From Escherichia phage p000v, in sequence record NC_055781.1: a DNA stretch of 64,000 nucleotides, one strand, 5' to 3'. A program made the position numbers and the translations under genes. Within the stretch, counting starts at the first letter, position 1; every line of letters begins with the position of its first letter. Under the pieces are notes generated by a model. It was not told where the DNA came from, did no database searches, and saw only the letters and a list, made by a program, of their open reading frames with translations. This document shows, in pieces, positions 16,593-47,071 of this stretch.

Positions 16593-17228
16593 ATGAAAAC
16601 TACACCAATCACTATCGCTATTGACGCAATCGTAAAACAAGCTTCATCTCTTGCCACTATGGCTAAAGTAATTAGTCAAAACTCTGCCCGATATAATGCT
16701 ATTCTTGAAACTCTTCGTCGCCCTGGACTGAGTAATTATGAAAGCCGAGTAATTATTACAGGTGTTGGTAAGAACGCTAATATCGCAACTAAAGCTTCCG
16801 AGACTTTTGCTTCACTAGGTATTCCTAGCATGTATTTGAACACCGGGCATTATTCTCATGGCGACGCAGGATTTATTGCACCTAATGATGTATTAGTTCA
16901 CATCAGTCGTTCTGGTAAGACTGAAGAAATGATAGGTGTTGCTAAACATCTTCGTATGATTCGTCCTCAGGTTAAACAGATTCTGTTACATTGTAACCCT
17001 GACATTCCGCAAGAATACGAAGCTCTTTTTGATTATACGTTCTGTACAGGCATCGCGGTAGAGGTTGATGAGAATTCTCTGGCTCCGACCATGTCCACTA
17101 CATTGTTGTTAGCGCTTATCGATACGTTTGCTATCAACCTTTCGTCTGAACGTGGATTTACCTCTAATGACTTCCTTAAGTTCCACCCTGGTGGTGCACT
17201 AGGTGCCATGTTACGAGGCGAACAATGA
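16593..17228 (+). CDS. SIS-domain sugar-phosphate isomerase, arabinose-5-phosphate isomerase-like (KdsD/GutQ N-domain type)
   Basis: 211 aa; VIITGVGKNANIA, HISRSGKTEE and C-terminal HPGGALG motifs typical of A5P isomerases; no CBS domains. Confidence 0.75.
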   Translation: MKTTPITIAIDAIVKQASSLATMAKVISQNSARYNAILETLRRPGLSNYESRVIITGVGKNANIATKASETFASLGIPSMYLNTGHYSHGDAGFIAPNDVLVHISRSGKTEEMIGVAKHLRMIRPQVKQILLHCNPDIPQEYEALFDYTFCTGIAVEVDENSLAPTMSTTLLLALIDTFAINLSSERGFTSNDFLKFHPGGALGAMLRGEQ

Positions 17229-17409: not shown

Positions 17410-19095
17410 ATGAAAAAAGCTGTTATTCTTGGTGCTGGACTGGCAACTCGTTTGTATCCAATAACGCACCATATTCCTAAGGTGCTTGTTAACTATAAAC
17501 AAGACACTATTCTGAGCAATTTGTATACAATTTATTCTGACCTTGGCGCAGATGAAATTATTGTAGTAGTTCATTCAAAATTTGCTGAAACTGTTCGAGC
17601 TTATTGCGAGCAAGAAGGGTTCAATGTGACTATTCGTACAGTTGATGAAGCGTATGGTTCTGCTTATGCTCTTGCTAAATTATACAAAGATTTAGATGGC
17701 CATAACGTAATTGTTAACTGGTGTGATATTATTCCTGACTTTGGTTCATGGTCTTGGAATGTTAACGCAATCTATGTTAAGGGTGATGAATGTCGATATA
17801 ATTTCGATGGTGAAAATATCACTAACGTAGGTTCAACAGGTGGTAATGTTGTAGGAATTTATCAGTTCAAAGACTGGGAATTCTACATGGGTTCTACTGA
17901 TGAGGAAATTCACGAATACTGCAAAGGTCGTGATTTCGTAGAATTCCTTTACGGCAGTGCATTCAATAAATCAGAGCTTATGAATCTAATTGATTTAGGT
18001 GATATGCCTAAACTTGAAAAGGCTCATGAAGTTCGTGAACTGAATCGTAGTTTTAATGCAGTTGAAATTGGCGAAGAAACTGTAACTAAATTCGCGTTAA
18101 CCGAACAAGGTCGAGCTCTTCAAAAAGATGAGATTTCATGGTATTTGAAAGTGAAATCAGATTCAGTTCCTCAGTTAGTTTCGGTAAATGAAAATAATTT
18201 TGAAATGGAACGTATTAAAGGTAAGCCGGCATTTGAATATATTAAATCCAAATCAAGTCTTGCTCGTCCACAAATTGTTGATGCAATTTTAGATGCACTG
18301 AAATTCAGCACGGACACTTATTTTGTAAGTCCTGAAACTGTTCGCCGTGATTTCACTAAAGAGTTCTATACGAAAGTTATTGATCGTTGTGAAAGCATTC
18401 AGCCATTGATTGATTCATTTGGTAAAATCACACGTGTGAACTACACTAAGATTGGACGTCTGAAGCCAATGTTGAAACAAGCTTTAGAACATCTTATTCG
18501 TTATCATAACCGTTCTCAGGGACAGTACTCTGTTATTCATGGTGACCCGAACTTCAGTAATACTATGATTACCGATAACGGCGAAGTCAAGTTTATCGAC
18601 CCTCGTGGATATTTTGGTGAAACCAAGATTTACGGGCCAAAATTGTATGATGAAGCTAAAGTGCTTTATGCTGTTTCAGGTTATGATGAATTCAATGCTA
18701 ATCCGACCTGGGGTCAGTTTACTATTGATGAAACAACTTGTAATGTGACTATTAACATCAATCCATTAGTTTACAAATATGGAAAGATGAGTTCGTTTAA
18801 CGAGTATCATCATTTGGCAGTAGCAATTATCTGGATTGCATTAGGTGGTTATTTCAAGAATAATCCACTTAAAGCGGTTGCCGCATATTATAAAGGTATG
18901 GAACTTCTGACTAAGCAATTACGTAACATGGGCCGTGTACTTCAAGACGGCTCTATTAGTTATGACGTAGCAGAACCTGTAACGGCTACTCTGATTACAA
19001 AAAATCCTGGTAAATGGGTACTAACTGATAAAGAAACTGGTGTTTCCTATCGTCCAATCGGCGGCGATATCACTCATCAATGGGAACGAATCTAA
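17410..19095 (+). CDS. bifunctional sugar-1-phosphate nucleotidyltransferase (N-terminal) / sugar kinase of APH-choline-kinase type (C-terminal)
   Basis: 561 aa; N-terminal KKAVILGAGLATRLYPIT (G-x-G-T-R-L-x-P-x-T nucleotidyltransferase signature); C-terminal HGDPNFSNTMI...IDPRG catalytic-loop-like motifs. Confidence 0.7.
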   Translation: MKKAVILGAGLATRLYPITHHIPKVLVNYKQDTILSNLYTIYSDLGADEIIVVVHSKFAETVRAYCEQEGFNVTIRTVDEAYGSAYALAKLYKDLDGHNVIVNWCDIIPDFGSWSWNVNAIYVKGDECRYNFDGENITNVGSTGGNVVGIYQFKDWEFYMGSTDEEIHEYCKGRDFVEFLYGSAFNKSELMNLIDLGDMPKLEKAHEVRELNRSFNAVEIGEETVTKFALTEQGRALQKDEISWYLKVKSDSVPQLVSVNENNFEMERIKGKPAFEYIKSKSSLARPQIVDAILDALKFSTDTYFVSPETVRRDFTKEFYTKVIDRCESIQPLIDSFGKITRVNYTKIGRLKPMLKQALEHLIRYHNRSQGQYSVIHGDPNFSNTMITDNGEVKFIDPRGYFGETKIYGPKLYDEAKVLYAVSGYDEFNANPTWGQFTIDETTCNVTININPLVYKYGKMSSFNEYHHLAVAIIWIALGGYFKNNPLKAVAAYYKGMELLTKQLRNMGRVLQDGSISYDVAEPVTATLITKNPGKWVLTDKETGVSYRPIGGDITHQWERI

Positions 19096-19481
19096 TGCAC
19101 CGTGTAGAAAACATGCTTAATCTTTGTTTTGATGTCGATGATTGTATAACAGAGTGGAATAACAATCGTGATTACGTGAACTTCAAACCAGACGTCGAAA
19201 TGGTGTCTGCCATTAATGCCCTGTATGATGCAGGGCATACCATAACGCTTTACACTGCCCGTGGTATGAAGTCGGTAGGTCCTGGTCGTATAGCAATTGA
19301 CATTCTCCCAAGTCTGATTCAGAACTTGGAAAACATTGGTTTGAAGTACCATAATTTGCTAACACATAAACCAGTATATGATTGGATTATCGACGACAAA
19401 GCTATGCGTCCTGACGAATTCAAAGCTCTTATGAATAAAGGCGAATTCGAAACATTTAAATCATATAAACCAAATCTATAA
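19095..19481 (+). CDS. small HAD-like phosphatase (putative)
   Basis: about 129 aa from ATG overlapping upstream stop (TAATG); FDVDDCIT resembles HAD motif I, WIIDDK resembles motif IV; capless. Confidence 0.45.
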   Translation: MHRVENMLNLCFDVDDCITEWNNNRDYVNFKPDVEMVSAINALYDAGHTITLYTARGMKSVGPGRIAIDILPSLIQNLENIGLKYHNLLTHKPVYDWIIDDKAMRPDEFKALMNKGEFETFKSYKPNL

Positions 19482-19538
19482 TAATTTAAGTAAGACCTGC
19501 AAAAACCATCGCATCAATTAACGCGAGATGCAAAAAAA

Positions 19539-20699
19539 ATGAATACTTTTAAAATCGGAACGAATTTTGATTTAGCTCTTCTTGATAAAATCGTAGAGCT
19601 CAATAAAACCTATCCTAATAGCTTGATAAACGAAGTATATGGCTCTACAAGAGAAATGGCTTTTGTAGCAGCCAGACCTGATTTTAGGCTTCCTGACGTT
19701 GACAAAAAGATGTTAGAAGACTACGTTAAACGTTGTAACGAATTAGGTATTTGCTTTAACTATACACTCAACACGATAAATCCTGGTTCAAAAAGAGAAC
19801 TAGTTGAGTGGAAGAAGAAAGCTATTCAGGATTATGTTCAGTATCTTTGGTCAATAGGCGTATGGCGTATTACTATCGCTAACCCTGTTGTTATGGAAAT
19901 TGTTCGTGAAGTCAATAAAGATATTGAGATTGAAGTTTCAACAATTCTACATGTCGATGCGGTAACTCAAATCAAATACTTACATGACCAATATAACATC
20001 AAAAAGGTCTGTTGCGGAATTCATAAGAACCGTTCAGTTTCTTTCCTGAAGCGTGCAGCAGAGTTTTGCAATAAGAACAATATAATATTTGAAGTTCTTG
20101 TAAATGAGTTCTGTTCTAATGCTGGTAAAGGGTATACAACACATTGTAGTTATCGTGACTCTTGCTATATTTTCCATAGTACTGATGTTACCGCTGATGA
20201 TGCTAAATCCTTAAATGGATATCCTATGCAGCACTGTATTAAAGCTCGTGATACAGACCCATTTAACTGGTTGAGAACTCGTTTTGTTCGTCCTCAAGAT
20301 TTGAAACTTTATAATGATATTGGTATCACTCAATTCAAAGTTTCAGGACGTACAGGTAGCACAGACTACATTTTGAAAGTTCTTGAAGCATACGCTTCTG
20401 AAAAGTTTGAAGGTAATTTGTTAGAACTGTGGAAGCCTTTAGAGACTATTTTCACTCTTGAAAATGAGACTGAGTTTTCACATACAGTAAATATTGAAAC
20501 CTCTTTGTTAGATGGCTTTTTAGAAAAAAGGTGGTTCAGACATCCAGATTTTGATTGTGCTAATGAAATCTGTGGGTCAACGTGTACATATTGTGAAAGG
20601 TATTATAAACGTCAATTATCTAAAAACGGGTTAGCAGAAAACTCCATATCTATTATTGATATAACTAACTCTGATGACGCTTTGAGGTACCCGGAATGA
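19539..20699 (+). CDS. Cys-rich protein, possible U32-family TIM-barrel/Fe-S enzyme
   Basis: 386 aa; motif order FKIGTNFD, NEVYGS, YTLNT, EVLVNEFCSNAGKGYTTHCSYRDSC resembles peptidase-U32 signatures by eye; C-terminal CANEICGSTCTYC Cys4 cluster. Confidence 0.35.
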   Translation: MNTFKIGTNFDLALLDKIVELNKTYPNSLINEVYGSTREMAFVAARPDFRLPDVDKKMLEDYVKRCNELGICFNYTLNTINPGSKRELVEWKKKAIQDYVQYLWSIGVWRITIANPVVMEIVREVNKDIEIEVSTILHVDAVTQIKYLHDQYNIKKVCCGIHKNRSVSFLKRAAEFCNKNNIIFEVLVNEFCSNAGKGYTTHCSYRDSCYIFHSTDVTADDAKSLNGYPMQHCIKARDTDPFNWLRTRFVRPQDLKLYNDIGITQFKVSGRTGSTDYILKVLEAYASEKFEGNLLELWKPLETIFTLENETEFSHTVNIETSLLDGFLEKRWFRHPDFDCANEICGSTCTYCERYYKRQLSKNGLAENSISIIDITNSDDALRYPE

Positions 20700-20935
20700 T
20701 TTCTAGAAAAAGTTTTAATTATAAACTTAACGAAGAGATTTTGACTATGAAACTGAACACTAACGAACAAATTCTTAAAAAGGCCCTTATGGGCCTGTTT
20801 GAAACCAAAGCGGCTAAAGTGATTAAAGAACCTGTTCAATTGGAATACTACGCTGATGCATTTCTTCATAGTGTTCTTGGAAGTATCGATGCTGAAGCTT
20901 TACGTTATATCAACATTGTCAAGAAATTCAAATAA
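20696..20935 (+). CDS. hypothetical protein
   Basis: 79 aa; ATGA overlap with upstream gene; not hydrophobic, so not Imm-like. Confidence 0.4.
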   Translation: MISRKSFNYKLNEEILTMKLNTNEQILKKALMGLFETKAAKVIKEPVQLEYYADAFLHSVLGSIDAEALRYINIVKKFK

Positions 20936-20977: not shown

Positions 20978-21694
20978 ATGGGAAAACATAACACAATGAA
21001 ATATATCAAAGCCGCAGATTTTCAAACCGCATTTAAAGCAGTCAATCGTGAAATTTTAGAAAACCCGGAATTCGTAACTGATTCTCGTATTGGACGTTGT
21101 AATGAAATTGGGTCTATGACAGTAGTTGTTGACACTCCATCATCATTCAAAATGACCGACCCACGTATTAACCGCATCTCTTATGAATATGCCGAAGACT
21201 TCTGGAAGTTTATGATTTCTGGTGGTACCAACGCAGAAGAAGCGTTTAAGGCATATCCTAATGTCGCTAAATTTATTTCTAAACCAAAATCAGATGTTTT
21301 GCCGGCGAACTTCAACACTTTCTATGGTCCTCGCATTGCGGCCCAATTACCAACTCTTCTAAAAGAACTTAAAGAGAAGCCTAACTCCCGAAGAGTTGTG
21401 TTCCAAATTCTAGAAAGTTCTGATCAGGCTTTGCTTGATTCGGACGAAACACTTGAATATCCATGTACTGACTCAGTAACTTATTATATTCGTGATGGTA
21501 AGCTTTATACCCACTGTCATATGCGTTCTCAGAACTGTGCTGTTGTTATGCAGTTGGATTTTTATCTCCAAGGAAAATTACTTCATTATATCGCTAACGA
21601 ATGCGGTGTAGAAGTTGGTGATTATACTCATACCATGGTAAGTGCCCATGTGTTTGAACGTGATTTTGATTATGTTAAAGGATTCCTTGACTAA
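20978..21694 (+). CDS. 42: dCMP hydroxymethylase gp42 (thymidylate-synthase fold)
   Basis: 238 aa, close to T4 gp42 length; assigned by position after gene 43 and size; no catalytic motif checked by eye. Confidence 0.85.
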   Translation: MGKHNTMKYIKAADFQTAFKAVNREILENPEFVTDSRIGRCNEIGSMTVVVDTPSSFKMTDPRINRISYEYAEDFWKFMISGGTNAEEAFKAYPNVAKFISKPKSDVLPANFNTFYGPRIAAQLPTLLKELKEKPNSRRVVFQILESSDQALLDSDETLEYPCTDSVTYYIRDGKLYTHCHMRSQNCAVVMQLDFYLQGKLLHYIANECGVEVGDYTHTMVSAHVFERDFDYVKGFLD

Positions 21695-22593
21695 TGGCTA
21701 TTTTCCGCGTACCAATCTTGAGTATGCGGTCTTATGAAACTGGACAGTATGCTATCCTTAAGGATGGCAACTTCCAACTTCATTTGCACCGTGCTAATCC
21801 GGGTGATGTGATTACATATCCACGTAATGCATCTGATATTAAAGAATGCGAACGTCTTTTCCCAGAATTTAAGTTTGTTCCATTATGGTATAAAGATAAC
21901 GCGTATAACACTCGTAAATATTTCTGGACTGAAAATGAATTTGTGGTTGATTCATTAATTGATTATTATGATTGTGATTTTCTAATCACAGATATCACTG
22001 GTTATGGTGGCGCTTTTGATGTGGAATTCAATTTCAATATCACTGCAGACCCTAATAAACCACGTTTTTATATTGATGAATTCTTAAAAACCGACATGTT
22101 GTCTGTTAATCGTTCACTTCAAACTACTGTGTTGAATGAACGTCAAAAAGAAGTGCTGGTTAACGCAGGTGCAGATGGTAATAAGATTATCGTAACGCAG
22201 AAAGTTATACGTCCTTCCATCATGCAGCGTCTTGTAGGTGATTTGGCTCCTATTCATCTAGATGGTATTTTTCATCCATTTCGAATTAGTGACCCATGTT
22301 ATCGTTTTGAACAAGTGGTTGAATGTGCAATTCAATTAGGTCAACCGCTTTATATAACCGATCCAAATAATAGCTTCGACAGAAATAAGTATCCTGAAGA
22401 AGCGCTGATTCGAATTTTTAAACCAACTAAAACTGAGTACTATCAAATTCTTAAAGGACGTCCGAAAATTCAATATTTCGAAAATCCTGAAGAAGTATTC
22501 CATCCAGGTCTTGGTGAGTTCATCTACTTTAATGCTTTAATTTCTTCGCCGTATAATATACCTAAATACGAAGATGTCGTAATCGAGGAATAA
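21694..22593 (+). CDS. hypothetical protein occupying the T4 beta-glucosyltransferase slot
   Basis: 299 aa; TAATG overlap with gene 42 stop; no resemblance to T4 beta-gt seen by eye. Confidence 0.45.
   Translation: MAIFRVPILSMRSYETGQYAILKDGNFQLHLHRANPGDVITYPRNASDIKECERLFPEFKFVPLWYKDNAYNTRKYFWTENEFVVDSLIDYYDCDFLITDITGYGGAFDVEFNFNITADPNKPRFYIDEFLKTDMLSVNRSLQTTVLNERQKEVLVNAGADGNKIIVTQKVIRPSIMQRLVGDLAPIHLDGIFHPFRISDPCYRFEQVVECAIQLGQPLYITDPNNSFDRNKYPEEALIRIFKPTKTEYYQILKGRPKIQYFENPEEVFHPGLGEFIYFNALISSPYNIPKYEDVVIEE
22533..22557 (+). promoter_or_regulatory. MotA-dependent middle promoter inside the 3' end of the 299-aa gene
   Basis: TGCTTTA box, 12-nt spacer, perfect TATAAT; 38 nt before the ATG at 22595. 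Confidence 0.5.
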
Positions 22594-22594
22594 A

Positions 22595-23143
22595 ATGGCT
22601 AAAATTATTTTAGTAGATGGCCCGGATAATGCCGGTAAAACAACTTTCATTAATGACATAATGGAAATTAGTGAAAGATATGTAAAGATTGATTTCCCTA
22701 AACGAACAGTTGATGGACGTTTCGATGTTAAGTCTCGAAATGAAGTTGGCTGTTTCGAAACGATGTTGAATTATTTAGACCCTACTAAGATTTATCTGTT
22801 AGACCGTGGATATATTAGTAACTGGGTTTATGGACGTATTCGACAAGATGCGGACTCGATTCTTGACGTTTATGAACAGGACTATGTTCGTCTTTGCCAA
22901 AACCATGATGTGTTCACAATTATTTTAACACGTAACGAAATGACTGAAAGTTTTGAAGACGACCTTATTACTTTGTCTTCATTCGGTTTTAATACAGTCA
23001 TTTCACATTTTGAAGAGTTTGCAATTCATAACAAAATCCAAACATATCAATTACTTAATCATGATGGTGCTAACAAAGTTATAGGATTTAATGCAAGCGA
23101 ACGTAATGGTTTGATTACAGAAATCATCAAATGGGCTCGTTAA
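22595..23143 (+). CDS. P-loop nucleotide/nucleoside kinase-like protein (thymidylate-kinase-like fold)
   Basis: 182 aa; Walker A VDGPDNAGKTT and DR motif LLDRGYISNWVYG. Confidence 0.55.
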   Translation: MAKIILVDGPDNAGKTTFINDIMEISERYVKIDFPKRTVDGRFDVKSRNEVGCFETMLNYLDPTKIYLLDRGYISNWVYGRIRQDADSILDVYEQDYVRLCQNHDVFTIILTRNEMTESFEDDLITLSSFGFNTVISHFEEFAIHNKIQTYQLLNHDGANKVIGFNASERNGLITEIIKWAR

Positions 23144-43451: not shown

Positions 43452-44552
43452 ATGAAAGTTATGTTTATCCCATCTCGCGCAGTCCCATTTAACCCAGAAC
43501 GTGTACAAGGTGGTCTTGAAGCAGTACATTTAAATGTATTGAAATATCTTGTGTCCATCGGTGCTGATATTGATTATATCGGCTTTGATAATGACACGTT
43601 TGGTGACTGGAAGGTTAATCATCATCCTGTTGGTCATCTGACTAAATTCAGTCTAGGTATGAGTTATACTATGGCTCGTAAGATTGTTGAACTAGCCGGC
43701 ATCCATGAATACGATTTTGTTGTTACTATGGAACCGACTAAACTAACCGTTCAGGCAATTAAAGACGCAGGTCTCTCTAAAGTTCATAAGAATTTTATGG
43801 CAACACCATTTGAACCGGTATCTCGTGGCATTGTTCAAATTTGGGACCAGACTATTCAAATTCATAAGAATGGTGGTAAGAGTTATGCTCCTACTAAAGC
43901 CTTCCGTGAATTTGAACGCAAATATTGTTATATGACTTCAGGTCTGACTGACAAAATTGATTATGATTATTGGCGAGCAAATCCGTTGTTTGAAGCCGAA
44001 GATTATCCGGTTATTTGTTTGACTGAAAAGCCAGAAGTTCTTCCGGCGACGGATCTGATTATTAGTGCACAACGTTATGACACTAAAATGCGTCGTACTG
44101 ATGTTGCTCTTGAAGCGATTAAAGCACTAGGCGAAAATGGTGCAGGATACTGTCCTAGTAAATGGGCACCACCAGCTAAATATCCTGTTATTATTGATGC
44201 TCCACACAGCGAAATCATGGAACGTCTTAAAACAGCTAAAGCACTTATCAATACGTGTCCTGACACGGGTACGGTAGAGAATAGTTCTATTGAAGCCATC
44301 TCTAAAGGTGTCCCTGTGATTCAGTTAGTTTTTAAGGATTATCCGCACGCGACATTCGAATATGACCCAGATACTGTGCGTGTAGAAATTGATTCCTCTA
44401 CTCCTAAGAAAGAAGTAGTTGCGCTTTACACAAAAGCTGTATTAGAATTCACTGACACATACGAAGCTCGAGTTAAACGTGCTGAAGCAGTATGGAAGAA
44501 GTATAACCGAGATGCAGTTGTTGCGATGTGGGATAAAATCTTCACAGCGTAA
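43452..44552 (+). CDS. GT-B fold glycosyltransferase (GT4-like), candidate DNA hydroxymethylcytosine arabinosyltransferase
   Basis: 366 aa; N-terminal MKVMFIPS...GGLEAVHLNVLKYL and C-terminal TGTVENSSIEAISKGVPVIQ resemble the GT4 E-x7-E/PVI motif. Confidence 0.65.
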   Translation: MKVMFIPSRAVPFNPERVQGGLEAVHLNVLKYLVSIGADIDYIGFDNDTFGDWKVNHHPVGHLTKFSLGMSYTMARKIVELAGIHEYDFVVTMEPTKLTVQAIKDAGLSKVHKNFMATPFEPVSRGIVQIWDQTIQIHKNGGKSYAPTKAFREFERKYCYMTSGLTDKIDYDYWRANPLFEAEDYPVICLTEKPEVLPATDLIISAQRYDTKMRRTDVALEAIKALGENGAGYCPSKWAPPAKYPVIIDAPHSEIMERLKTAKALINTCPDTGTVENSSIEAISKGVPVIQLVFKDYPHATFEYDPDTVRVEIDSSTPKKEVVALYTKAVLEFTDTYEARVKRAEAVWKKYNRDAVVAMWDKIFTA

Positions 44553-44857: not shown

Positions 44858-47071
44858 ATGATTATTGAAACGGCTAAAGAAACGATTATTGGTTCAGGCG
44901 GTAAGAGCACAGCATTCACTATTCAAGGCAATAGCAAAGTTTATAAGATTTTGTCTAATGACCTTTATACAAACAAAGAATTGGCTTGTGTACGTGAATT
45001 AATTACAAACTGTATCGATGGACAAATTCTTAACGGTTGCACTGATAAGTTTATTGTTCAGGCTCCAGGTCGTTTAGACCCACGCTTTGTAGTTCGAGAC
45101 TTTGGTCCTGGTATGAGCGATTTCACCATTAGAGGTAATGACGAAGAGCCAGGAATCTATAACTCATATTTTGCTTCAACTAAAACATCGAGTAACGATT
45201 TCATCGGTGGATTCGGACTCGGTTCTAAAGCTCCGCTAGCATATACCGATACGTTTAACCTTACGTCTTATCACAACGGTGAAGTTCGTGGTTACGTAAT
45301 CTACCAAGATGACACAGGTCCACAAATTAAGCCGACCTTCGTAGATAAGATGGGTCCTGATGACCGTACGGGTGTAGAAGTAGTTGTACCGGTTAACCCG
45401 GAAGATTTTGAAAAGTTCGCATCCGAAATTGCATATGTTATGCGTCCTCTAGGTGATATTGCAGAAGTTCGTGGTGTTAAAGATATTAAATACTTCCCGG
45501 AATTTGACGATGTATATTTGGCCAAGGAAGCTCCATGGGGTGAACGTGGTAATATCATGGCTGTTTATGGCGGTATTGTATATCCAATCGGAAGCGTTAT
45601 TAAAGAACAAACATGGATGATGACACGATGCACTACAGCTTATATTAAATTCCCTATGGGTGAACTAGATGTAGCTCCGTCTCGTGAAGCATTGTCATTT
45701 GATAAACGTACGGTAGCAAATATCCATAAACGCGTTGCAGAAATCGATGCTAAATTGTTCGCTGAAGATTCTAAGAAATGGATTGATTGTAAATACCCAC
45801 GTCATGTGTTCCGTGAAATTGATTCTCTTGGCTATACCGCTCGTAAATACATGGAAAAGGCTGGGTCTAATATTGAATCACTGAAATACTCTAAAGAACA
45901 ACTAACTTATTCTGAGTTGTACAAACGTTTTAAAATGGGGCCTGAGTGGTGTAATCTTGGTGTCGTATACGATATCGTTGAATCCCCTCGTCTTCGTCGT
46001 ATTCGTGAAAGTGGTAGCTCAACGGCAACCATTTCAATTAACAGTCTGATTGGCATTAACATTAAAAACGTTGAAATTGTTATTGACGACGTTAAGGGAC
46101 GCGTTCCATTAATGCGAGCTCTTAATTCAATTGAAATGTCTAAAGACGAGGTTAAATTAACTGGTAAAGTTCCACGCGGTTTTGGTAAAAGCGTACTATT
46201 CGTTGACCCTACAGACGAAGATGCAATGAAACTTCTGGAACGCCTTAAAGTTATCTTTGATGGCGACAACATTAACATGTACAAGACTTCAGAGCTTTTA
46301 CAAATCGTTAAGCCATGGATTGAAGTCAGGAAACGGACTAATGAGCCTCGTCCTAAATCGCCAAGTGCTCATCGATTCTTTAAGAATGAAAACGATGTTT
46401 GGGTATCAGAAGACCTCTTTATTCCGGCAAGTGAAGCAGATGAAATCCAAGGTTATGCTATAGTTCGTAATCGTTCTAATGCTGAATGTCTTGACGCAGA
46501 TAAAGGTTGGTTGAACTATGACTCCAATTTCTTGACCCGTATTGCTGATTTGTCAGGTATTAAAGAGTTCACTGTAGTTCGTCCACAGATTGCTAAGAAA
46601 GTTCGTAAACTTGGTGAAGTAGAATGTTTGTTCGAAAAATCAATTAATGACTATATTACGCTAATCGATAAAGTGGATTATGATGAGTATGTATCACCAA
46701 GTCGTAGAGCACAGCCTTATTTGAATCATATTACTCGTAATGAAGAGCTTAACTTCCTTAGTAAGTATTTTAGCTCTAAGAACAAAGAAATCAGTAAAGA
46801 CTTTGCAAAACTCTCAACAGTAAATAATCGTTGGGGATGGAATCGATTCGCAGGTGCTACTAATACAGACATGAATAAGAAGTTAGAACTGTGTGCTAAA
46901 ATTTTCGATAAGCTTAAAGATAATGCTTACGATAATGATGATAAAATGGTTATTGAATTCGAAACCAATTATCATATTGTGTCAGAATACATGGGACGAC
47001 GTGGTACTCTTTCCAAAGAACAGGTCGCTCAAATCGTTAAATTCATGAAGGCCGTGGAAGCGGCCAAATAA
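44858..47071 (+). CDS. rIIA: rIIA protein
   Basis: 737 aa; N-terminal GHKL-ATPase-like region; immediately upstream of rIIB. Confidence 0.9.
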   Translation: MIIETAKETIIGSGGKSTAFTIQGNSKVYKILSNDLYTNKELACVRELITNCIDGQILNGCTDKFIVQAPGRLDPRFVVRDFGPGMSDFTIRGNDEEPGIYNSYFASTKTSSNDFIGGFGLGSKAPLAYTDTFNLTSYHNGEVRGYVIYQDDTGPQIKPTFVDKMGPDDRTGVEVVVPVNPEDFEKFASEIAYVMRPLGDIAEVRGVKDIKYFPEFDDVYLAKEAPWGERGNIMAVYGGIVYPIGSVIKEQTWMMTRCTTAYIKFPMGELDVAPSREALSFDKRTVANIHKRVAEIDAKLFAEDSKKWIDCKYPRHVFREIDSLGYTARKYMEKAGSNIESLKYSKEQLTYSELYKRFKMGPEWCNLGVVYDIVESPRLRRIRESGSSTATISINSLIGINIKNVEIVIDDVKGRVPLMRALNSIEMSKDEVKLTGKVPRGFGKSVLFVDPTDEDAMKLLERLKVIFDGDNINMYKTSELLQIVKPWIEVRKRTNEPRPKSPSAHRFFKNENDVWVSEDLFIPASEADEIQGYAIVRNRSNAECLDADKGWLNYDSNFLTRIADLSGIKEFTVVRPQIAKKVRKLGEVECLFEKSINDYITLIDKVDYDEYVSPSRRAQPYLNHITRNEELNFLSKYFSSKNKEISKDFAKLSTVNNRWGWNRFAGATNTDMNKKLELCAKIFDKLKDNAYDNDDKMVIEFETNYHIVSEYMGRRGTLSKEQVAQIVKFMKAVEAAK

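Follow-up and report, generated by a model that had tools for sequence, protein, structure and literature searches.

A U32-family protein encoded in the DNA-modification island of Escherichia phage p000v is a candidate oxygen-independent cytidylate hydroxylase

What does a U32-family gene, in most database records annotated as a peptidase, do in the DNA-modification island of a T-even-like phage? The question is raised by Escherichia phage p000v, of which a stretch of 64,000 nucleotides (NC_055781.1; in the following called the window) was analyzed. The gene is located at 19539..20699 on the + strand and is the orthologue of RB69 gp50 (RB69p050, ORF050c). RB69 DNA contains mono- and di-arabinosylated 5-hydroxycytosine, and RB69 gp48, a homologue of the thymidylate synthase ThyA, is the 5-hydroxy-dCMP synthase, which binds FMN and incorporates 18O from 18O2 (PMC13326640), so that the gp48 route needs oxygen. 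It is the sole characterised route to 5-hydroxycytosine in RB69-type DNA, yet the hosts are gut bacteria and the phages themselves encode an anaerobic ribonucleotide reductase. In the same study, RB69p050 is listed in Table 1 as 'sugar or heterocycle reductase' with the structural match 5D88 and is otherwise undiscussed; the discussion names RNA hydroxylation pathways with no tie to gp50 (PMC13326640). Our analysis leans towards a different function, C5 hydroxylation of a (deoxy)cytidylate, most likely dCMP, by a route that depends on prephenate and needs no O2; we consider this reading of gp50 somewhat probable.

The open reading frame (ORF) extends from ATG to TGA and encodes 386 amino acids, exactly as given in an earlier note on this DNA, and every motif quoted there is present in the translation. 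The note had also tentatively placed the product in the U32 family, which was borne out by the sequence profile and the predicted fold. The protein matched PF01136 (Peptidase_U32) over residues 94-286 with 42.2 bits (gathering threshold 22.4; E=7.3e-11), nearly all homologues carry a precomputed match to this family, and phrog_5757 was matched over the full length (E=6.6e-267; residues 1-386 against profile positions 2-387 of 387). An AlphaFold model with 40 homologues as input reached a pLDDT (predicted local distance difference test) of 91.4 and a pTM (predicted template modeling score) of 0.90 and showed the TIM-barrel-like U32 core of 5D88. The window derives from a Mosigvirus, an RB69-like T-even coliphage with 99% identity over 6.5 kb to phages PECP20 and p000y, and its U32 protein is 98.5% identical to RB69 gp50. 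The gene and its U32 annotation are already present in databases, mostly as 'peptidase' or 'putative protease of the collagenase family', and in one record as 'putative enzyme involved in UDP-arabinose biosynthesis'. With the UbiU equivalog model NF047963 only 18.5 bits were obtained, far under the cut-off of 440, and a profile of the subfamily scored below 16 bits against each of the E. coli proteins TrhP (15.8), RlhA (8.6), UbiU and UbiV. PF01136 was the sole Pfam match at E values up to 10, so accessory C-terminal domains of the RlhA or TrhP type were not detected, and PDB searches with the single sequence and with the profile gave chance-level matches only. Judged by these comparisons, the gp50-type proteins are a distinct U32 subfamily.

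Ten Cys residues are invariant in 40 homologues with identities down to 47% (C158, C177, C192, C203, C209, C233, C340, C345, C349, and C352). Most U32 subfamilies have the motif CX6CX15CX3/4C; that of UbiU is CX6CX16CX38C, with the ligands C169, C176, C193, and C232 defined experimentally (10.1101/587956). C203 and C209 of the phage protein aligned with the CX6C pair (UbiU C169/C176, RlhA C169/C176, TrhP C170/C177), and 'GYPMQHC233' matches UbiU 'GYPTLC232' by eye only, MAFFT having put these Cys residues in different columns. Three of the four UbiU ligands consequently have counterparts, two by alignment and C233 by eye. UbiU C193 has none in the alignment; the invariant C192, which lies nearby within a nine-residue, subfamily-specific insert, is a candidate fourth ligand. 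The region C192-x10-C203-x5-C209-x23-C233 (20112..20237, + strand), in which all four Cys residues are invariant, is a candidate [4Fe-4S] ligand region, and a variant cluster site is plausible because the Cys pattern is conserved, yet the CX3/4C pair is absent. A further four invariant, subfamily-specific Cys residues, C340-x4-C345-x3-C349-x2-C352 (20556..20594, + strand), without counterpart in the aligned region of UbiU, UbiV, RlhA, and TrhP (first 340 residues), possibly form a second metal site. RlhA has C-terminal Cys residues of its own (C572, C580, C611, and C614), and conserved C-terminal Cys residues are essential for RlhA function (PMC5727448).

Gene order and domain content tie the subfamily to the supply of prephenate, in three different gene architectures. 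Chorismate mutase makes prephenate, and 3-deoxy-D-arabino-heptulosonate 7-phosphate (DAHP) synthase opens the pathway leading there. Prephenate is the demonstrated oxygen donor for UbiU/V (PMC10990095) and is genetically required for RlhA (PMC5727448) and TrhP (PMC6599085). All of these U32 proteins also require Fe-S clusters and are active in the absence of O2. In the Serratia phage LC53 and the Enterobacter phage Entb_45, a gene for a type II chorismate mutase (CM_2 with 44.6 and 40.9 bits; gathering threshold 27) directly follows the U32 gene, overlaps its stop codon, and precedes the synthase gene. By tblastn, chorismate mutase was found in 51 of 50,697 phage records, with all matches listed located in the slot downstream of U32. 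Among the matches listed were phages of Klebsiella, Serratia, Yersinia, Enterobacter, Edwardsiella, Erwinia, and Pectobacterium as well as of Escherichia (EcS1), Shewanella, Providencia, Morganella, and Kosakonia. The phage chorismate mutases keep R11, R28, K39, E52, S84, and Q88, which are six of the eight active-site residues of the E. coli enzyme (EcCM), the other two being D48 and R51. In the second architecture, found in three uncultured phages (loci L018, L036, and L048 of our collection), a stand-alone DAHP synthase is encoded not more than 1 kb from U32. In the third, DAHP synthase and chorismate mutase are parts of one fusion protein, encoded in the U32 gene string of L050, both Pfam domains scoring above their gathering thresholds, and tblastn matches corresponding to this fusion were obtained for L049. 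For the neighbour in L018, 3-deoxy-D-manno-octulosonate 8-phosphate (KDO8P) synthase was considered as well, because this enzyme uses arabinose 5-phosphate (A5P), and was rejected, since the DAHP synthase models scored 237 vs 63 bits (E=2.6e-70 vs 2.9e-17).

A second line of evidence came from 38 divergent loci from metagenomes and IMG/VR (U32 44-56% identical, contigs up to 466 kb), whose neighbouring genes were counted by tblastn. U32 and the ThyA-like synthase occurred together in 15 of 15 T4-like loci; within the flanks of up to 10 kb of the divergent loci, the synthase was found in none of the 38. Proteins encoded near U32 in these loci were a Tmk-like nucleotide kinase (27/38), a GT1-type glycosyltransferase (24/38, often overlapping the U32 start), a sugar kinase/pyrophosphorylase resembling AfhE (16/38), an A5P-isomerase-like protein (9/38), and DAHP synthase (5/38). 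In one lineage (L019 and L044), U32 is accompanied by TAGT-like glycosyltransferases, a dCTP deaminase/dUTPase, and UDP-galactopyranose mutase. U32 is thus recurrent in DNA-glycosylation clusters. Outside the T-even-like phages, as far as the sequences tell, U32 is the only visible candidate for making the hydroxyl acceptor, and in the divergent loci it would occupy the place expected for the hydroxylase. Other divergent loci have U32 beside dCMP deaminase, thymidylate kinase, uracil-DNA glycosylase, and DNA polymerase III alpha, and a further one has it among genes for NT5C, a deoxynucleoside kinase, and a nucleoside deoxyribosyltransferase. These contexts, which belong to deoxynucleotide metabolism (dCMP deaminase, dCTP deaminase/dUTPase, deoxynucleoside kinase, NT5C, uracil-DNA glycosylase), support a nucleotide hydroxylase, and a mononucleotide substrate is indicated because nucleotide kinases and deaminases accompany U32. 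As dCMP deaminase or dCTP deaminase/dUTPase adjoins U32 in several uncultured phages, some lineages might hydroxylate dUMP instead of dCMP and make 5-hydroxyuracil DNA.

Several further features of the divergent loci were recorded. The deaminase gene (dCMP deaminase or dCTP deaminase/dUTPase) lies at 7447-8004 in L004, 7504-7929 in L007, and 8073-8486 in L019 and is also found in L044 and L047. Contigs L004 and L007 carry dCMP deaminase together with DNA polymerase III alpha, and directly 3' of U32 they encode a conserved protein of 248-254 amino acids without family assignment (L004 9175-9939, L007 9080-9826; 58% identical to each other). A radical S-adenosylmethionine (SAM)/SPASM protein recurs a few kb from U32 (L004, L005/L006, L020, and L021) and could be a maturase or carry out an extra modification step. 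L005/L006 also contain a second, very divergent U32 paralogue with 22% identity.

In the mechanism that we propose, the cytosine substrate of the U32 enzyme would most probably be dCMP, which would be converted to 5-hydroxy-dCMP by C5 hydroxylation without O2, with prephenate as the likely oxygen donor. Phosphorylation, incorporation into DNA, and arabinosylation would then follow the known pathway, so that gp50 would be the anaerobic counterpart of the adjacent O2- and flavin-dependent gp48. A need for such a counterpart is suggested by the oxygen requirement of the gp48 route on the one hand and, on the other, by the NrdD and NrdG genes of the window, which serve the synthesis of deoxynucleoside triphosphates under anoxia. 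What we infer from these data is which substrate gp50 acts on, that it is a hydroxylase, that it uses prephenate, and that its role is anaerobic. More tentatively, and with less confidence than for gp50 itself, the whole subfamily may consist of viral enzymes that hydroxylate a free pyrimidine deoxynucleotide (dCMP here, possibly dUMP in some lineages) without O2 and for which some phages supply their own prephenate. Many uncultured phages would then have no other hydroxylase for their glycosylated 5-hydroxypyrimidine DNA, enteric T-even-like phages would have U32 as an anaerobic back-up, and no U32 enzyme known before would have a substrate that is small, soluble, and commercially available. 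If this reading of gp50 holds, the protein would stand out among U32 hydroxylases by the class of its substrate and by its biological role, both of them new, and by a variant Cys architecture. Relative to the literature covered, three points appear to be new, namely the function proposed, the genomic association of U32 with chorismate mutase and with DAHP synthase, and the replacement of the ThyA-like synthase by U32 in many uncultured phages. Functional or essentiality data on the gene were contained neither in the Thanatos paper nor in a phage Tn-seq preprint, and a literature search on phage U32, chorismate mutase, and DNA modification gave nothing relevant, with He et al. 2026 (Nat Chem Biol) and Mahler et al. 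2025 (Cell Host Microbe) lying outside its coverage.

The distribution of U32 was compared with that of the 5-hydroxy-dCMP synthase. The synthase was present in 372 phage records, including 57 from Acinetobacter and 20 from Rhizobium phages. U32 was present in 220, all with at least 80% identity; those named or listed were all phages of Enterobacterales or Shewanella, and neither Acinetobacter nor Rhizobium was seen in the tallies of the 220 records. In Acinetobacter phage Konradin, the genes for isomerase, pyrophosphorylase/kinase, and phosphatase run into those for the synthase and glycosyltransferases, and U32, chorismate mutase, and the small ORF X that follows U32 in the window are all missing. 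The DNA of DLP3, another Acinetobacter phage, contains arabinosyl-5-hydroxycytosine (PMC13326640). Given the Konradin cluster without U32 and the arabinosyl-5-hydroxycytosine made by DLP3, neither the supply of the sugar donor nor the aerobic formation of 5-hydroxycytosine requires U32. NrdD showed a parallel pattern, being abundant in phages of facultative anaerobes and present in fewer than 33 Acinetobacter records vs 57 with the synthase. The gene distribution fits the idea that U32 is a module retained where hosts meet anoxia.

A number of points weigh against our proposal. The host-aerobiosis pattern comes from only a few independent phage clades, and the E. coli phage VR5, the single Dhakavirus examined, has the synthase and no U32, so that U32 is not obligatory in phages of facultative anaerobes. 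The Mosigviruses, including the window, have no chorismate mutase gene and would have to draw on PheA and TyrA of the host, and where phage chorismate mutases do occur they have N at the position of D48 and I, V, or L at that of R51. The canonical CX3/4C half of the U32 motif was missing when the phage protein was aligned with those of E. coli, and the fourth ligand is a guess. The visible flanks of the divergent loci extend to at most 10 kb per side, and a ThyA-like or TET enzyme may be encoded elsewhere on these genomes. The role of GT1 as first transferase is a hypothesis, not a demonstration (PMC13326640), and in vitro activity has been measured for no U32 protein (PMC10990095), gp50 included.

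The genomic context also bears on the other functions that can be envisaged. The same prephenate-dependent C5 hydroxylation might take place on cytosine in DNA or on dCTP, and two observations favour this: RlhA and TrhP, the characterised U32 enzymes of nucleic acids, act on rRNA and tRNA, and the small C-terminal four-Cys module could be a zinc-ribbon-like nucleic-acid-binding element. What speaks against it is that the large C-terminal domains of RlhA and TrhP are absent from the phage protein and that a Tmk-like kinase is found in most divergent loci, together with dCMP/dCTP deaminases and other mononucleotide enzymes. T-even-type phages moreover replace cytosine before replication. All in all we regard this variant as unlikely. 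Less likely still is a redox enzyme acting on the sugar or another heterocycle in nucleoside diphosphate (NDP)-arabinose synthesis or tailoring, as the published Table 1 entry implies. The gene does lie between a sugar-phosphate phosphatase and base-modifying genes, its predicted TIM-barrel fold is one that many sugar enzymes have, and the record naming UDP-arabinose biosynthesis points the same way. Against this, U32 is absent from Konradin, DLP3, and VR5, whose clusters are otherwise complete (a minimal one in VR5), and sugar chemistry offers no reason for chorismate mutase and DAHP synthase to accompany U32. We know of no U32 protein that acts on sugars. The earlier note had envisaged a new nucleotide- or sugar-modifying activity. 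The nucleotide half of this suggestion is reinforced by the genomic context; a sugar role is unlikely because complete arabinosyl-5-hydroxycytosine clusters without U32 exist and the synthesis of UDP-arabinose (UDP-Araf) from arabinofuranose 5-phosphate (Araf5P) has been attributed to AfhE and AfhF alone (PMC13326640).

That both characterised U32 enzymes of nucleic acids are prephenate-dependent RNA hydroxylases also raises the possibility that gp50 hydroxylates host or phage RNA, in the manner of 5-hydroxyuridine (ho5U) in tRNA or 5-hydroxycytidine (ho5C) in rRNA, and tunes translation, its position in the cluster being incidental. We give this an even lower probability, since the host already has TrhP, TrhO, and RlhA, and since in the phage collection U32 always stands beside the 5-hydroxy-dCMP synthase or, in divergent phages, near GT1-type, sugar-activation, and kinase genes. 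In addition, the window contains no tRNA genes, and the Pfam search revealed no RNA-binding accessory domains. Scarcely credible, finally, is a collagenase-type (PrtC-like) peptidase, for which the historical family name and the prevailing annotations speak. Ten invariant Cys residues suggest metal clusters, the characterised U32 members are tied to hydroxylation and not to proteolysis, the neighbourhood consists wholly of nucleotide and sugar metabolism with prephenate-supply genes, and no signal peptide or protease partner was evident.

For the favoured function, a cytidylate hydroxylase, several known systems provide precedents. RlhA (YdcP), the ho5C2501 synthase for E. coli 23S rRNA, has a U32 domain and carries out the chemistry proposed for gp50, C5 hydroxylation of cytosine, in dependence on prephenate and Fe-S biogenesis (PMC5727448). 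Its 'YSGQC176YISH' aligns with 'YRDSC209YxxH' of the phage protein. It differs in its size of 653 amino acids (386 in the phage protein), the DUF3656 region, and its substrate, one cytosine in a ribosome precursor as opposed to a DNA-precursor pathway. Its CX3C pair C192/C196 is absent from the phage protein, whose C-terminal CX4CX3CX2C is different as well. The logic proposed for gp50 and gp48 is that of TrhP and TrhO, two unrelated enzymes, one an O2-independent U32 protein and the other O2-dependent, which both form ho5U34 in tRNA and are both kept by organisms of oxic and anoxic niches (PMC6599085). In this case, the substrate is a tRNA uridine, TrhO belongs to the rhodanese family and is not a ThyA-like flavoenzyme, the genes are unclustered, and TrhP has the motif CX6CX15CX3C. 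UbiU and UbiV each bind a [4Fe-4S] cluster by four Cys residues and take the place of the flavin monooxygenases UbiI, UbiH, and UbiF under anoxia; C203, C209, and, by eye, C233 of the phage protein resemble the UbiU ligands C169, C176, and C232. In contrast to gp50, they form a heterodimer, act on a lipid, and require the accessory factor UbiT, and UbiU C193 lacks a phage counterpart.

The ThyA-like 5-hydroxy-dCMP synthase (RB69 gp48, DLP3 gp80, and the HY126 homologue) is encoded in the same cluster, makes the product proposed for U32, and represents the established way of forming the 5-OH group to which arabinose is attached in DNA (PMC13326640). It differs by its thymidylate synthase superfamily fold, its flavin cofactor, and O2 as source of the oxygen atom, and also in its occurrence, as it is present in phages of strict aerobes without U32 and absent from the flanks of the divergent U32 loci. 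The structural match 5D88 is Mk0906, a U32 protein of Methanopyrus kandleri with 14% identity and a length of 247 residues, which was deposited as 'collagenase family protease' and has no C-terminal extension.

The earlier note had taken the surroundings of the gene for a 5-hydroxymethylcytosine island. Instead, the island makes arabinosylated 5-hydroxycytosine, the adjacent ThyA-like 5-hydroxy-dCMP synthase (20978..21694; Pfam Thymidylat_synt) being 98.7% identical to RB69 gp48. It has N186 and D194 at the positions corresponding to ThyA D169 and N177 (D169N and N177D by our own residue mapping), and Asn at the D169 position is diagnostic. All genes of the island lie on the + strand in the order A5P isomerase, AfhE-like protein, phosphatase, U32, X, synthase, GT1, and Tmk-like kinase. 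The A5P isomerase (16593..17228; RB69 gp55) has a Pfam SIS domain and 96.2% identity to RB69p055. It is followed by the bifunctional sugar kinase/NDP-sugar pyrophosphorylase (17410..19095; RB69 gp52:53, AfhE-like; Pfam NTP_transferase and kinase-like matches), whose role is assigned after previous work (PMC13326640; PMC6024577), and by the AfhF-like haloacid dehalogenase (HAD)-type phosphatase (19080..19481; RB69 gp51, 94.7% identity to RB69p051), to which the conversion of Araf1,5P to Araf1P is likewise assigned (PMC13326640). Downstream of the synthase are the GT1 gene of the RB69 gp46:47 type (21694..22593), whose position matches RB69p046:47 and whose product is the predicted first DNA arabinosyltransferase, and the gene for the Tmk-like nucleotide kinase (22595..23143; RB69 gp45, 98.4% identity to RB69p045). 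In VR5 (L012), the arabinosyl-5-hydroxycytosine cluster is minimal, without U32, chorismate mutase, X, and A5P isomerase, and the Tmk-like kinase gene lies upstream of the synthase gene, unlike in the window.

Elsewhere in the window, also on the + strand, are the genes for the anaerobic ribonucleotide reductase NrdD (54-1763; Pfam NRDD 554 bits, Gly_radical) and its activase NrdG (1760-2230; Pfam Fer4_12, Radical_SAM). In some related phages (JB75, N2), nrdD is split by a homing endonuclease. An ORF of 366 amino acids without Pfam match (43452-44552), located between topoisomerase genes and the likely rIIA (44858-47071), matches in position the second DNA arabinosyltransferase described for Mosigviruses (RB69 gp3) and is a candidate for it by position. 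An 18-nt inverted repeat, TCGCATCAATTAACGCGA, is present at 19509-19526, 13 nt before the ATG of U32. A strong Shine-Dalgarno sequence was not seen at this start, and the repeat might influence translation initiation. A scan for promoters and terminators yielded fewer promoter-like sites than in shuffled controls and was therefore uninformative.

ORF X (20696..20935, + strand; RB69 ORF049c) encodes 79 amino acids, and its ATG overlaps the U32 stop codon (ATGA). It had no Pfam match, and no homology was detected outside T-even-like phages. X contains a conserved YYxDAFxHS motif, changes faster than U32 (91% vs 98.5% identity to RB69), is split or truncated in several Mosigviruses, and gave a poor model (pLDDT 60). 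X may act as a partner of U32 or be a gene in decay. A diverged chorismate mutase was considered and rejected, as there was no Pfam match, BLASTP gave E=6.9, and hhalign a probability of 1%. X also coexists with chorismate mutase in Yersinia phage TG1, Serratia phage 92A1, and Pectobacterium phage PM2, in the order U32-X-chorismate mutase-synthase; because X is not a chorismate mutase and coexists with one elsewhere, the Mosigviruses have lost theirs. The chorismate mutase of LC53 (L002 6158-6502, 114 amino acids) has an N-terminal extension (MRRINHTMNELV...) that resembles the N-terminus of X (MNRINHNLNERLV in 92A1). This points to an ancestral module U32-X-chorismate mutase and to a deletion in LC53 that joined what was left of X to the mutase.

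If gp50 has the function proposed here, DNA modification and the resistance to restriction and CRISPR that goes with it could persist in anoxic habitats. Prephenate-dependent U32 hydroxylation would extend from RNA and quinones to DNA precursors, and viruses would carry shikimate-pathway enzymes to feed U32 chemistry. U32 hydroxylases have never been reconstituted in vitro, partly since their substrates are ribosome precursors, tRNAs, and very hydrophobic lipids (PMC10990095; 10.1101/587956); a dCMP-hydroxylating U32 enzyme would be a tractable model for this unsolved mechanism, with reconstitution in vitro being feasible. Many uncultured phages, jumbo phages included, would make glycosylated 5-hydroxypyrimidine DNA by means of U32 alone, and in phage-therapy candidates, such as Mosigviruses and phages of Klebsiella, Proteus, and Yersinia, DNA modification could depend on oxygen.

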